This document shows positions 19,720 through 23,109 of a DNA stretch of 64,000 nt, piece by piece (position 1 is the first letter of the stretch; every line of letters starts with the position of its first letter). The position numbers were made by a program, and so were the translations under genes. The stretch covers positions 59,060 to 123,059 of the forward strand of contig JARYMI010000002.1 in assembly GCA_029907205.1 (NCBI GenBank), in the 5' to 3' direction. The notes under the pieces were generated by a model. That model saw nothing but the letters and a program-made list of their open reading frames with translations, was not told the DNA's origin and searched no databases. The DNA comes from Clostridiales bacterium (GTDB lineage Bacteria > Acidobacteriota > Aminicenantia > Aminicenantales > UBA8522).

Positions 19720-20567
19720 CTAGATGGTTCTGATATCATATCCGTTTTCAAAAAGATGCGTTGCAAAGCTGTGCCTCAATGTATGCACTGACGCTTGCTT
19801 TGTAATCCCCGCTTTCCCCACAGCAACCTTGAACGCCTTCTGAAGTAAAGCGGGATGGACATGGTGCCTTCTGACAATATTGCTTCTTTGGTCAATGGAG
19901 AGCGATTTCGATGGAAAAACCCAGAACCATCCCCATTCCTTCCCGGCATTGGGATATTTTTTCTCCAGGGCATCGGGAGGCGTAGTACCCCCATATCCTT
20001 TCGCCAAATCCTGGTCATGCATCTTCTTTATTCTCTGCAGATGTAATTTAAGAGACTCCTTAATCTTGTCAGGCATTATGGTGGTTCTATCTTTCTCTCC
20101 TTTTCCCGAGCGGATGATCAGGAGATTATTGGCGAAATCGATGTCCTTGATTCTTAAGCGGATGCATTCCAGAAGGCGGAGGCCGCTTCCATAAAGCAAT
20201 TGAGCCATAAGCAGATATGGCCCCTCAAGAAAAGAAAGGAGCCGATTAACCTCTTCGCGAGTCAAGACAACGGGGAGTCTTCTCTTTTGCCGCGCCCTTT
20301 CGGTGTCAGACAGGTCGCACAGGTTTTTCTGCAGGATATTCCGGAAAAGAAACAATAAGGTCTGTTTTGAAAATATTTGAGAAACCTAACCACCCAGTAG
20401 ACATAGAATCTGGCTTTTTCCAGGGGGACAAATCGATGGCGCCTGAGAAAGTCTTCAAAATCGGAGAGGTTTTTTTGATGGTCCAATCGGCACCCCCAGG
20501 GCGGTTTGCAATTTAATATGGATAATTCTAAGATAATATTGCAATTTTGCGAGGATATTAAATGCAA
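19720..20567 (-). pseudogene. Integron integrase (intI) remnant: frameshifted and lacking the C-terminal Tyr box
   Basis: Frame A (20262..20567) reads ...FLRRHRFVPLEKARFYVYWVVRFLKYF..., the IntI N-terminal region. Frame B (19720..20355) reads ...RLPVVLTREEVNRLLSF...GKGEKDRTTIMP...[24 protein letters not shown]...HTLRHSFATHLFENGYDIRTI*. The KYP..W.WVFP patch is the IntI-specific additional domain absent from XerC/D. The stop comes before the LLGH...Y catalytic tyrosine box. Confidence 0.65.
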
Positions 20568-20574
20568 TCACGTA

Positions 20575-20639
20575 ATATACGACGGTCATCGGGGCAAATT
20601 TGTATCAAAGACAGCACGCTGTATATTAATAGTTAGGCG
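20575..20639 (+). other. Candidate attI: three TGCAAT-containing repeats followed by perfect core site GTTAGGC (20633..20639)
   Basis: ttgcaatttaata / ttgcaattttgcg / atgcaatcacg, then aatAGTTAGGCg. GTTRRRY core consensus. Position and orientation relative to intI are as expected for attI. Confidence 0.4.
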
Positions 20640-20689
20640 GTGCGTGAGGGCAAAAGACGCCTCAGTCAAAGTAGAAGTGCGAGGTAAGA

Positions 20690-21916
20690 TTGGCAATGCT
20701 AAATCTGGAGTCCGCAGATAACCTTTTTCAGACGGGAGATTTCACAAAGGCGGAGAGGCTCTATGCTGAAGCGCTGACTGGGGATCCGAGGAATTTCCAT
20801 GCTGTCGTTCGCTTAGGCTACATTGCTCTACTTGCTAATCGTCTGGACGATGCGCAGAAGTGGCTAACTGAGGCAATGGACCTCAAGCCTGAAGATGCCA
20901 CGCCAAAAACCTTACTGGCAGAGACTTTCTATCGCCGTGACGATTTCCAACAGGCAGCCCCATTACTGCGTGCCCTTGGCAGAGAGGCCATGGCAAAGAA
21001 ATTGGAAAGTTTCAATGGTGCTATGCCATACCAAATCGAGGGCAAGGCTGAAGTCACATATCTGAAGTTCGTTATGACCGACCCATTGCCTGTTATCCAA
21101 GTGCAAGTCAACCGCAGCGAGCCTGTCAACCTTTTCATTGATACAGGCGGAGCAGAGGTGATCATTGATACGGAGTTTGCCGAAGAAGTGGGCGGAGCGC
21201 AGTTTGGGACGGAGAGAGGCACTTTTGCAGGGGGGCAACAGGCAGGCTACCAACAGGGACGAATAGACTCCTTAACGCTCGGTGATTTCATTATCAAGAA
21301 TGTGCCTGTGCATATGATGGATGTCTGCCGTTTCTCTTCTGTCTTTGGAGGAAAACGAGTAGACGGCGTTATCGGGACGGTTTTGCTATATCACTTCTTG
21401 GCTACCTTGGACTATCCCCAAGGCGAACTGATTTTGCGACGCAAGACGAAGGAGACCCTGCAGCACTTTGATCAGGACGAAAAGGAGCAAAAGCATATCG
21501 TGGTTCCCTTTTGGATGGCTGGCGATCATTACATGGTAGCGTGGGGGACAATTAACAAAAGCCAACCGATGCTTTTCTTTGTGGACACGGGGTTAGCAGG
21601 CGGTGGATTCACATGCCCAGAATCCACGTTGAAGGAAGCAGGCATTCAGTTACGGGAAGGCCTTGCAGATGAGGGAATCGGCGGCGGAGGGAAAGTGAAA
21701 GCCGTTCCGTTCGTGGTGGAGGAATTGACGTTTGGGGGTGCCAGGGAGCACAACGTTCGGGGGGTGTATGCAGGCGCTTTTCCTTTTGAAAATGCCTTCG
21801 GGTTTCGCATTGGAGGCTTGATATCGCATGGATTCTTCAGGCCCTATGCTCTGACCCTCGATTTTACTAGCATGAGATATTTTCTGGAGAGAAAAGAATT
21901 CGCAGAGGCCGCCTAA
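20690..21916 (+). CDS. Cassette 1 ORF: TPR repeats + two-lobed retropepsin-like aspartyl protease
   Basis: N-terminal TPR (…AERLYAEALTGDPRNFHAVVRLGYIALLANRLDDAQKWL…), then two DTG lobes: LFIDTGGAEVIID and FFVDTGLAGGGFTC. TTG start. Confidence 0.6.
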   Translation: MAMLNLESADNLFQTGDFTKAERLYAEALTGDPRNFHAVVRLGYIALLANRLDDAQKWLTEAMDLKPEDATPKTLLAETFYRRDDFQQAAPLLRALGREAMAKKLESFNGAMPYQIEGKAEVTYLKFVMTDPLPVIQVQVNRSEPVNLFIDTGGAEVIIDTEFAEEVGGAQFGTERGTFAGGQQAGYQQGRIDSLTLGDFIIKNVPVHMMDVCRFSSVFGGKRVDGVIGTVLLYHFLATLDYPQGELILRRKTKETLQHFDQDEKEQKHIVVPFWMAGDHYMVAWGTINKSQPMLFFVDTGLAGGGFTCPESTLKEAGIQLREGLADEGIGGGGKVKAVPFVVEELTFGGAREHNVRGVYAGAFPFENAFGFRIGGLISHGFFRPYALTLDFTSMRYFLERKEFAEAA

Positions 21917-22024
21917 CAAGCTGCTGGAGCCGACCGCGCCAACGCGCGCGGCAATTCAAGCGCTCATTTCCATTCGTGCCATTCTGGGAAGAGGGCGCGG
22001 CGGCTCAGGCGCAGGCCGTTATGC
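21911..22024 (+). repeat. attC-like recombination site 1 (114 bp)
   Basis: Starts with inverse core GCCTAAC (the ORF stop TAA is inside it) and ends with GTTATGC. The ends form an imperfect inverted repeat with unpaired bases (GCCTAACAAGCTGCTGGAGCC vs revcomp GCATAACGGCCTGCGCCTGAGCC). Internal GC-rich palindrome GACCGCGCC…GGCGCGGCGGC. The next ORF's RBS follows immediately. Confidence 0.55.
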
Positions 22025-22044
22025 AGAAAAGGAGGTAAATTGCT

Positions 22045-23019
22045 ATGATAAGCATGAACATGAAATGGAGGATGTTTTGGCTGATAGGGATGTTGCTATT
22101 GGCAACCAGCATCACCTTTGCCCAGGAAGAAGATGTGGAAGGGAGTAAAGACCATCCATTGATTTCACGGTATCCGGGGTTGGTCATCAAATATTACGAT
22201 GTGAAAGAGTTTAACGAATATGTTCTTCCATTGGGTAAACTCGAAGAAAAAAAACTGACAAAGAGCCAAAGGTTGGAAGGAAAAGTGACACAAATCACAT
22301 ATTCCGCTCCAGCGGGCAGGTCAACACTTGAGATATATCGTAACTACGAGTTAGCCCTGAAGAAGGCTGGCTTTGAAACTTTATTTACTGTGACAAGTAA
22401 GGAATTAGGAGAATGGGGATGGGATCCATTTGCAAATGCATTTGCTGCTGCTACTTCTCCTCGATCTACAGAGTACTTAGGTGCCTTCTTAGGTGGTGAA
22501 GGACGATATCTTGCTGCAAAATTGACTCGTCCAGAAGGAGATATTTATGTAGCTCTTTGTATGGCGATAGGGTGGTACTCCAATGCAATGGTCCAACTTG
22601 ATGTAATTGAACTCAAACCAATGGAGACAGGATTGGTAACAGTGAATGCAGAGGCATTGGCACAAGATATTACAAGAACCGGACATGTGGCTATCTATGG
22701 CATCTACTTCGACGCAGGTAAGACAGATGTAAAGCCTGAATCTGAGCCGACCTTAAAAGAGATTGCCAAGCTCCTCCAACAGAACCTCGAACTTAAACTG
22801 TATGTTGTAGGTCATACTGATAATATTGGCACCTTGACTGGCAATATGGAACTCTCAAAACTCAGAGCTGAGGCAGTGGTGAAGACGCTTATTTCCAAGC
22901 ACGGTATAGACTCAAAAAGACTCCATCCTGTTGGGGTGGGACCTTTGGCTCCGGTCATTTCTAACAAAACCGACGAAGGTCGGGCAAAGAATCGCCGCGT
23001 AGAGTTAGTGGAACAGTAA
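22045..23019 (+). CDS. Cassette 2 ORF: secreted protein with C-terminal OmpA-family peptidoglycan-binding domain
   Basis: Signal peptide MKWRMFWLIGMLLLATSITFAQE. C-terminus LYVVGHTDNIGTLTGNMELSKLRAEAV…NRRVELV is OmpA/MotB-like. AAGGAGG RBS. Visibly AT-richer codon usage than neighbours. Confidence 0.7.
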   Translation: MISMNMKWRMFWLIGMLLLATSITFAQEEDVEGSKDHPLISRYPGLVIKYYDVKEFNEYVLPLGKLEEKKLTKSQRLEGKVTQITYSAPAGRSTLEIYRNYELALKKAGFETLFTVTSKELGEWGWDPFANAFAAATSPRSTEYLGAFLGGEGRYLAAKLTRPEGDIYVALCMAIGWYSNAMVQLDVIELKPMETGLVTVNAEALAQDITRTGHVAIYGIYFDAGKTDVKPESEPTLKEIAKLLQQNLELKLYVVGHTDNIGTLTGNMELSKLRAEAVVKTLISKHGIDSKRLHPVGVGPLAPVISNKTDEGRAKNRRVELVEQ

Positions 23020-23049
23020 TGTTGAAAAGAAGGGTTTTGATTTTTGCTC

Positions 23050-23109
23050 TGCCTAACCAGTCGCTGAAGCTGACGGCGTAAACGCCGCAGCTCAGCTCTA
23101 TCGTTCAGG
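23050..23109 (+). repeat. attC-like recombination site 2 (60 bp)
   Basis: GCCTAAC CAGTCG CTGAAGC TGACGGCG TAAA CGCCGCAGCTCAGC TCTATC GTTCAGGC. This is the R''-spacer-L''-stem-L'-spacer-R' layout and length of short attC sites, with extrahelical bases. It starts 30 nt after the ORF stop. Confidence 0.6.

Follow-up and report, generated by a model that had tools for sequence, protein, structure and literature searches.

A defective integron as the probable passenger of a non-autonomous IS4-like unit in an Aminicenantes chromosome

How does a gene cassette array with a broken integrase gene come to lie between pepD and galK in a chromosome of the uncultivated Aminicenantes? The DNA analyzed here is a stretch of 64,000 nucleotides of contig JARYMI010000002.1 (assembly GCA_029907205.1), referred to throughout as the window, in which an original prediction had recognized an integron-like locus: a degenerate gene for an integron integrase (IntI), a candidate attI site and two cassettes, each closed by an attC site. 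The sequence features on which that prediction drew are all present, with small corrections to their coordinates. We consider it likely that a non-autonomous unit resembling insertion sequences (IS) of the IS4 family, that is, a 'mobile insertion cassette', carries this defective integron as its passenger, and we lean, with less assurance, toward the fuller account in which a mobile insertion cassette of the IS4 family took up an environmental, non-class-1 integron platform and brought it by transposition into the chromosome of an uncultivated member of the Aminicenantes.

The first part of the answer lies at the edges of the locus. The integron remnant occupies the interior of a 3,473-bp unit (19686-23158) between pepD and galK, bounded by 17-nt terminal inverted repeats that are complementary at 16 of 17 positions and, immediately outside these, by a direct repeat of 10 bp. 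The features that delimit the unit, and the genes on either side of it, are as follows.

19676-19685, no strand: left target-site duplication, GCTGATTCAA, an exact 10-mer set against the outer end of the inverted repeat
19686-19702, plus strand: left terminal inverted repeat, CAGGAGTTGCCCCAAAA; the match to the ends of IS and of MITEs (miniature transposable elements with inverted repeats) runs to ~19704
23142-23158, minus strand: right terminal inverted repeat, reading CAGGAGTTACCCCAAAA on the minus strand; inward, the similarity to IS and MITE ends reaches ~23138
23159-23168, no strand: right target-site duplication, GCTGATTCAA; the alignment with the closest genome (L005) resumes here
18095-19555, minus strand: pepD (listing of open reading frames, ORFs)
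start at 23217, downstream of the unit: galK (ORF listing)

Elsewhere in the window the 17-nt end does not recur, even with three mismatches allowed (0.20 expected by chance), and the 10-mer GCTGATTCAA occurs there twice, each time abutting a repeat (0.15 expected by chance). The corresponding empty site is preserved in the closest genome, L005 (PepD 93% identical), in which window positions 18095-19684 and 23160-26000 map to adjacent blocks at 91-93% identity. The two blocks overlap by 8 nt, window position 19684 corresponding to L005 position 9869 and window position 23160 to 9876, and L005 carries one copy of CTGATTCA with no trace of the intervening 3,475 bp; the sequence of the empty pepD-galK junction is written GCGCCGGCTGATTCAAGCCTTGCG. 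pepD also adjoins galK in five further relatives (L006, L007, L009, L011 and L070). An independent contig from the Joint Genome Institute (JGI) metagenomes, L004, reproduces the succession of pepD, left repeat and truncated intI with 1 mismatch in 946 nt. Within the unit, 17 nt separate the left repeat from the integrase remnant and 32 nt separate the second attC site from the right repeat, and no transposase was detected there by ORF inventory, by protein-family scans or by a tblastn search of the window with the IS transposase. At the left unit end, positions 19694-19719 form a terminator-like site, a GC hairpin GCCCCAAAAATAGGGGC followed by TGATTTTTGC, which overlaps the inverted repeat and may be relevant to read-through toward intI or may have arisen by chance; a promoter and terminator scan of the locus yielded matches at chance level.

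These observations bear directly on the view, which we hold to be very improbable, that the locus is a sedentary chromosomal integron of the lineage, decaying in place between repeats that are there by coincidence. The intI pseudogene does carry several lesions, the array is short and free of resistance genes, and intI pseudogenes beside attC clusters are documented, in 15 of 279 clusters of attC sites lacking integron-integrases (CALIN; PMC4889954). Yet decay in place is at odds with the empty site in the closest genome and with the pepD-galK adjacency in five more relatives, with the inverted repeat and its abutting 10-bp repeat being unique in 64 kb, with the match of that repeat to a transposon terminus and with the very different sizes of the two attC sites (114 versus 59 nt); in addition, 80 pepD-containing loci, mostly from Aminicenantes and amounting to 1.45 Mb, gave no match at E ≤ 1 to the attC model R2 described below. 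Heterogeneous attC sites are typical of mobile, not sedentary, arrays. In-place decay is largely refuted by the empty site, and, of the original description of a small chromosomal integron or CALIN-like cluster, the integron remnant with its attC array stands, while the word 'chromosomal' needs qualifying because the locus is a 3,473-bp insertion with IS4-like repeats and a 10-bp duplication that is absent from the sister species.

Still harder to credit is an assembly artefact in which an integron contig was joined into an Aminicenantes scaffold at repeated IS ends. The same end lies near contig ends in many contigs of one metagenome sample (Ga0105099), so it does break assemblies. A chimera, however, would not yield a perfect 10-bp host duplication on both sides, the left junction recurs in the independent JGI sample that contains L004, and a 100%-identical cassette 2 protein (P0121) is encoded on a 224-kb contig of a metagenome-assembled genome (MAG) at NCBI.

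The terminal repeats can be assigned to a family of mobile elements. An exact scan of the JGI metagenomes for CAGGAGTTRCCCCAAAAWT returned 92 stretches, which form several families whose interiors are alike within a family and whose outer flanks are unrelated. Conserved interiors between unrelated flanks are typical of multi-copy mobile DNA, as are matches close to contig ends; in many contigs of sample Ga0105099 (a dozen contigs) the end lies ~100 nt from the end of the contig. Complete copies are of two kinds, ~1.45-kb elements with an ORF of ~418 aa (L172, L180, L198, L200 and L223), which share with L160 the same 17-19 nt at both ends, and MITEs of 208-550 bp. L160 (oriented 1-2785) measures 2,785 bp, is flanked by a 9-bp duplication and contains, beside the transposase, a second, unrelated ORF of 411 aa that is probably a nested insertion sequence. 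The duplications of the five complete copies with clean flanks are 9, 9, 9, 10 and 11 bp long.

The ORFs of these elements match Pfam DDE_Tnp_1 (PF01609) at 34.5 bits against a cut-off of 23, the L198 protein contains the Y(2)R(3)E(6)K signature (AYLTRWRIEETIRFMKQ), and the element ends start with CAGG. CA ends, the YREK signature and a duplication of ~10 bp are hallmarks of the IS4 family (PMC2266710), which the predicted parent IS fits. We call it 'IS4-like', and regard it as at best a distant member of the family, because it falls below the curated NCBIfam IS4 cut-offs. An assignment of the ends to the ISAs1 family, which we took to be indicated by CAGG ends and an 8-10-bp duplication, proved wrong, the transposases being DDE_Tnp_1 and IS4-like. 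The IS4-like family represented in L144-L235, to our knowledge not named before, has the terminus CAGGAGTTACCCCAAAA, which at least five MITE families share, and the IS and MITE families together are very abundant in some sediment samples.

Several points weigh against the proposal that the unit moved as a mobile insertion cassette of this family. Similarity between the unit and the IS and MITE families is restricted to the terminal 17-21 nt, without subterminal homology (the right end shows a 21-nt identity to MITE ends in Ga0105099 contigs), and the proposal does not account for the presence of two bare ends on either side of an integron. The NCBIfam models closest to the transposases are those of IS4, and the best of them, NF033590, scores 50.5 bits against a cut-off of 160. 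The right junction is without an independent assembly. No autonomous IS copy was found in the window or in 80 related loci, and present-day mobility is accordingly hypothetical. A scan with the consensus of Pc, the cassette promoter, returned 5 sites against 3.8 expected, none convincingly placed and none above chance. Finally, no attC site was found in the 92 other end-bearing metagenome stretches, so that the window is a single integron-bearing example. A search for the unit end in 84 loci gave no match.

The bareness of the ends also invites a composite origin, in which two IS or MITE copies flanked the integron, moved it and later eroded until the outer ends remained. We regard this as unlikely. 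Class 1 integrons flanked by MITEs or by integron mobilization units (IMUs) are documented (PMC3575428), and MITEs with exactly these ends are abundant, but the 17-nt and 32-nt stretches just inside the repeats show no similarity to MITE or IS interiors, and erosion would have required two independent deletions, each sparing the outer end alone. A further route, in which IntI would have excised a circle by recombining a GTTC in intI (19727) with the GTTC of the second attC site and the circle would then have been inserted into a short MITE, was set aside because the integrase homology continues two codons past the GTT at 19727.

The preferred reading, an integron remnant moved between two IS4-like ends, requires that the passenger be an integron, which can be assessed from its attC sites, its integrase and its attI. 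Because Rfam has no family that reports attC sites, a covariance model was built here; the sole Rfam match in the window is a tRNA gene (2544-2617). The two sites recovered are these.

21911-22024, plus strand: attC1, 114 nt, from R'' GCCTAAC to R' GTTATGC (model R2, 41.7 bits, rough E = 1.4e-8)
23051-23109, plus strand: attC2, 59 nt, from R'' GCCTAAC to R' GTTCAGG (model R2, 51.9 bits, rough E = 3.4e-11)

A hand-written attC scanner (AAC...GTT with constrained folding) was too permissive, with ~20 candidates per strand in 64 kb, and served for picking training sites only. The first model, R1, was trained on 13 short attC sites from L001, L086, L089, L110, L115, L116 and L128; L001, a JGI contig, has six clear attC sites after six divergent cassettes. 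In the training alignment, which pairs R'' with R' and L'' with L', compensatory changes occur in 11 of the 16 predicted pairs. Applied to integrase-bearing loci, R1 identified 104 sites at E ≤ 0.05 in 47 loci, and we consider it validated because nearly all of these lie upstream of intI and on the opposite strand. In the window it detected attC2 at 47.8 bits, with merely a local 15-bit match in the long attC1. The second model, R2, was retrained on those 104 sites, long ones included and window sites excluded, and then searched the entire window with its filters disabled, its E-values being rough since the calibration was shortened. It returned two significant full-model matches, attC1 and attC2, 1.1 kb apart, with the next best at 10 bits.

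This independent model matched both of the sites that had been proposed and no others in the window. The coordinates proposed for attC1, 21911-22024 (114 bp), were recovered unchanged, including the TAA stop codon of ORF1 that the site holds (21914-21916); attC2 was confirmed as a site, but it begins at 23051 rather than 23050, measures 59 nt rather than 60 bp and starts 31 rather than 30 nt past the stop of ORF2. When the bottom strands were folded as DNA, attC2 formed a single hairpin (-18.0 kcal/mol, z = -3.8, matched by none of 200 shuffles); two T bulge out of its 3' arm, and the spacer that separates the R and L boxes is unpaired. The fold of attC1 was unexceptional in energy (z = -0.8), and in it the R and L boxes pair, with one extrahelical T in the L stem. 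The proposed check for extrahelical bases thus found such T residues in both sites.

The integrase gene runs away from the cassettes and survives in pieces.

19720-20358, minus strand: intI pseudogene, main fragment (TIGR02249 and tblastn), with its stop codon at 19720-19722 and the IntI-specific patch present
20373-20567, minus strand: intI 5'-end remnant in a different frame (weak similarity at 20373-20441) together with the intI upstream region (tblastn)
19720-20355, minus strand: ORF of 211 aa corresponding to the intI fragment (ORF listing)

The 211-aa ORF scored 292.2 bits (cut-off 265) against the NCBIfam model TIGR02249, 'integron integrase', over model positions 73-282 of 315, as opposed to 91.4 and 88.8 bits against the XerC and XerD models TIGR02224 and TIGR02225, whose cut-offs are 335 and 330; Pfam reported the generic Phage_integrase family (PF00589) only. 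Its closest database proteins are integron integrases exclusively, at 76-99% identity (76% to P0002, 87% to P0084 over 68% of the query and 99% to P0001). The fragment was expected to bear the IntI-specific patch that separates IntI from XerC/D; the patch is there, and the fragment groups with IntI.

Reconstruction by tblastn with P0002 (307 aa) and P0005 as queries aligned the main fragment to P0002 residues 63-274 at 76% identity. The ORF ends in GYDIRTI followed by a stop, and the last ~33 residues are gone, including the MIYTHV tyrosine box with the catalytic tyrosine, in agreement with the predicted stop ahead of that box and the verdict of a dead integrase. The N-terminal ~25 residues are faintly visible in another frame at ~20373-20441 (P0002 residues 4-40, E = 0.005 in a 1.5-kb database) and gave no match in protein-family scans; the N-terminal part does lie in a different frame, as had been proposed, with its weak similarity located in this interval of the proposed 20262-20567. 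Between remnant and main fragment ~36 residues are absent in the tblastn alignments, and in the DNA alignment with L001 ~100-125 nt are absent from the intI of the window. The gene is predicted to be dead because the tyrosine box and ~36 internal residues are lost and its 5' part is out of frame, and no other IntI-like sequence was found in the window.

The fragment is also of mixed descent. Over residues 1-130 it shares 77-87% identity with the P0002 lineage and 37-67% with P0005; over residues 136-212 it shares 93-100% with P0005 and 47-70% with P0002, the breakpoint lying near 19960. These identities make what survives of the integrase a chimera that joins two IntI lineages, which suggests recombination between two integron integrase genes. 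The integrase of L001 is itself split, into ORFs of 176 and 99 aa, and lies between two attC arrays, 120-3616 (minus strand) and 6283-9636 (plus strand); one array, of six sites, diverges from attI, and the second, of at least four sites, is situated on the other strand, downstream of intI.

Between the integrase ORF and the cassette ORFs, the ORF listing of 19400-23600 leaves an AT-rich spacer, where the attI site is found.

20502-20638, plus strand: attI region, ending in the core GTTAGGC (20632-20638), from comparison with L001-L003

In L001-L003, whose IntI is 87% identical, the stretch from intI to the first cassette matches this region at 81% identity. Identity to L001 runs through GCTGTATATTAATAGTTAGGC (GTTGGGC in L001) and is lost directly after it. 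The putative attI is supported because similarity to L001-L003 stops at the GTTAGGC core, as it should at a junction of attI with a cassette, and crossover is expected between G20632 and T20633. The alignment with the related integron bears out where attI had been placed; the predicted GTTAGGC core is present, one base before the position 20633 given for it. The three TGCAAT repeats described upstream of the core were found as well, the middle copy alone being conserved in L001.

Against this background one can judge the notion that there is no integron here, and that a XerC/D-type or phage recombinase happens to lie near ordinary terminators or REP-like palindromes. The fragment does match PF00589 and, weakly, the Xer models, and no Rfam family reports the hairpins. 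But the IntI model scores 292 bits, above its cut-off, where the Xer models reach ~90 bits of the ~330 demanded, the attC models match just these two sites in the window, their training set shows compensatory changes in 11 of 16 pairs, no T-run follows either hairpin, and cassette 2 recurs within another attC array. This reading is refuted, and we give it practically no weight. The outcomes that had been named as fatal to the integron, namely no attC-model matches, an integrase grouping with Xer or phage enzymes, or a missing patch, did not arise.

With the locus read as an integron, its two cassettes can be delimited by their cores.

20633-22018, plus strand: cassette 1, 1,386 bp, from the attI core to the R' core of attC1, with an ORF at 20696-21916 (TPR plus clan AA aspartyl protease)
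22019-23103, plus strand: cassette 2, 1,085 bp, with an ORF at 22045-23019 (DUF4892 plus an OmpA-C-like domain; Pfam OmpA and DUF4892)
20696-21916 and 22045-23019, plus strand: ORF1 and ORF2 of the ORF listing

The cassette 1 protein matches Pfam Asp_protease_2 and TPR_19, and the cassette 2 protein has a signal peptide and is of a secreted type, so the cargo of a TPR-aspartyl protease and a DUF4892-OmpA protein is of the non-resistance kind that had been anticipated. G+C content is 0.445-0.518 over 19-23 kb and ~0.55 in both flanks, which agrees with the AT-richness noted earlier for cassette 2; no tandem repeats were found in the window.

Cassette 2 has a close relative elsewhere. P0124, 80% identical to its protein, is the product of the final cassette in an array (L236-L238) that has six attC sites or more, and the DNA of cassette 2 is 78.6% identical to L236 over 22025-23105, attC included. 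Because this similarity is bounded by the crossover points, starting just past the R' core of attC1 and ending inside the R' core of attC2, cassette 2 is a discrete unit that circulates between arrays. In L239 and L240 (281-1962) a DUF4892-OmpA gene, 77% identical, occurs without attC, a few kb from tyrosine recombinase and resolvase genes, and this is a different mobile context for the cassette 2 gene family.

The closest relative of cassette 1, P0241 in L242, is 84% identical in protein and 87% in DNA (window 20689-21899, L242 5994-7204), and the attC model gave no match at the L242 copy. Similarity ends 12 nt before attC1; the window ORF is five codons longer, and the R'' box supplies its stop codon. 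The L242 copy is preceded by GTTAGAC and followed by GCCTAAC...GTTCGC, motifs that could be the debris of old attC cores. The pair may represent a gene near the gain or loss of its attC, that is, the birth or the decay of a cassette, and would, if so, make the question of cassette genesis approachable.

Taken together, the features would fit the following course of events. An active IntI would have captured both cassettes at attI by attC x attI recombination of folded bottom strands, and the platform would then have come to lie between two IS4-like ends, possibly having been passenger DNA in an IS from which both the transposase and the 3' end of intI were later lost; the truncation of intI may date from before or during the formation of the unit. 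An IS4-like DDE transposase supplied in trans would have recognized the CAGGAGTTRCCCCAAAA ends, and the unit would have been cut out and pasted between pepD and galK at a staggered cut of about one helical turn. The resident integrase could no longer act, while one encoded elsewhere could still excise or reshuffle the cassettes, which would be mobilizable by a foreign integrase because both attC sites look structurally intact; the whole unit could move again if a matching transposase were present.

As to the host, a genome scan with PepD placed the window in a MAG of Candidatus Aminicenantes, while exact-sequence look-ups with the GalK and the cassette 2 protein of the window and with P0121 returned no record. 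MAGs labeled 'uncultured Eubacteriales' or 'Clostridiales bacterium' (L006, L007, L010-L014, L070 and others; P0121) are syntenic with Aminicenantes contigs, and their PepD is 65-81% identical to that of Aminicenantes-labeled contigs; going by this synteny and identity, these labels look wrong.

Integrons that belong to none of the five clinical classes are commonly regarded as sedentary, and the vehicles known for them (Tn402-like transposons, plasmids and a small number of MITE pairs) come almost entirely from Proteobacteria. Here, in a candidate phylum from anoxic sediments, minimal IS4-like ends would have carried an entire attI-cassette platform as their cargo. If this is correct, cassette arrays can spread by riding bare IS ends without an integrase of their own, a plasmid or a Tn402-type transposon, which suggests a cheap and easily overlooked route for their relocation. 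Such relocation could be one source of attC clusters without a working integrase, beside the origins proposed by Cury et al. (2016). In annotation, integron calls would be worth checking for flanking inverted repeats and duplications before they are labeled chromosomal. We rate the importance of the case as moderate because there is one example only, its integrase is dead and its cargo is ordinary. In the searchable literature, the coverage of which is incomplete, we found neither an integron described within a mobile insertion cassette nor any specific account of integrons from Aminicenantes.

Among known systems, a CALIN beside an intI pseudogene (Cury et al. 2016, PMC4889954) resembles the locus in having an IntI remnant divergent from the cassette array, an attC at the end of each cassette, an attI-like junction in first place and non-resistance cargo. 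With two attC sites 1.1 kb apart and no functional intI, the window falls under the CALIN definition of at least two attC within 4 kb. It differs in having two cassettes only, a chimeric integrase and a platform that sits inside a transposable unit.

A mobile insertion cassette is defined by two inverted repeats, the absence of a transposase and a target duplication (PMC3913671), and the IS4 family is known for passenger DNA (PMC2266710). The unit has IS-matching ends, no transposase, a 10-bp duplication (9-11 bp in the parent elements) and an empty site, and it shares with MIC231 and its relatives, from the IS231 subgroup of IS4, the lack of an internal transposase, the carriage of passenger genes and the target duplication. 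It departs from that group in that its IS belongs to a distant IS4-like lineage from sediment metagenomes, not to IS231, and in that its passenger is an integron remnant.

Class 1 integrons borne on Tn402 or Tn5053 have a similar order of repeat, intI 3' end, attI, cassettes and other repeat, and Tn402 derivatives without transposition genes can still be mobilized in trans. The repeats of Tn402 measure 25 bp and its duplication 5 bp, and its tni genes belong to another transposase family; none of these features occurs in the window.

Parallels are also offered by class 1 integrons that lie between two 439-bp MITEs with target duplications or between two 288-bp IMUs (PMC3575428), cases of which include those of Gillings 2009, Domingues 2011 and Poirel 2009 that this review covers. 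What they have in common with the locus is that non-autonomous elements with inverted repeats mobilize a defective integron and leave a target duplication behind. Where those cases involve two complete MITEs, clinical class 1 integrons and resistance cassettes, the window lacks two complete flanking MITE copies: its one unit has bare ends of 17-21 nt, its integrase is environmental and not of class 1, and its host belongs to an uncultivated phylum. The unit is best read as a variant of the known MITE- or IMU-mobilized integrons.

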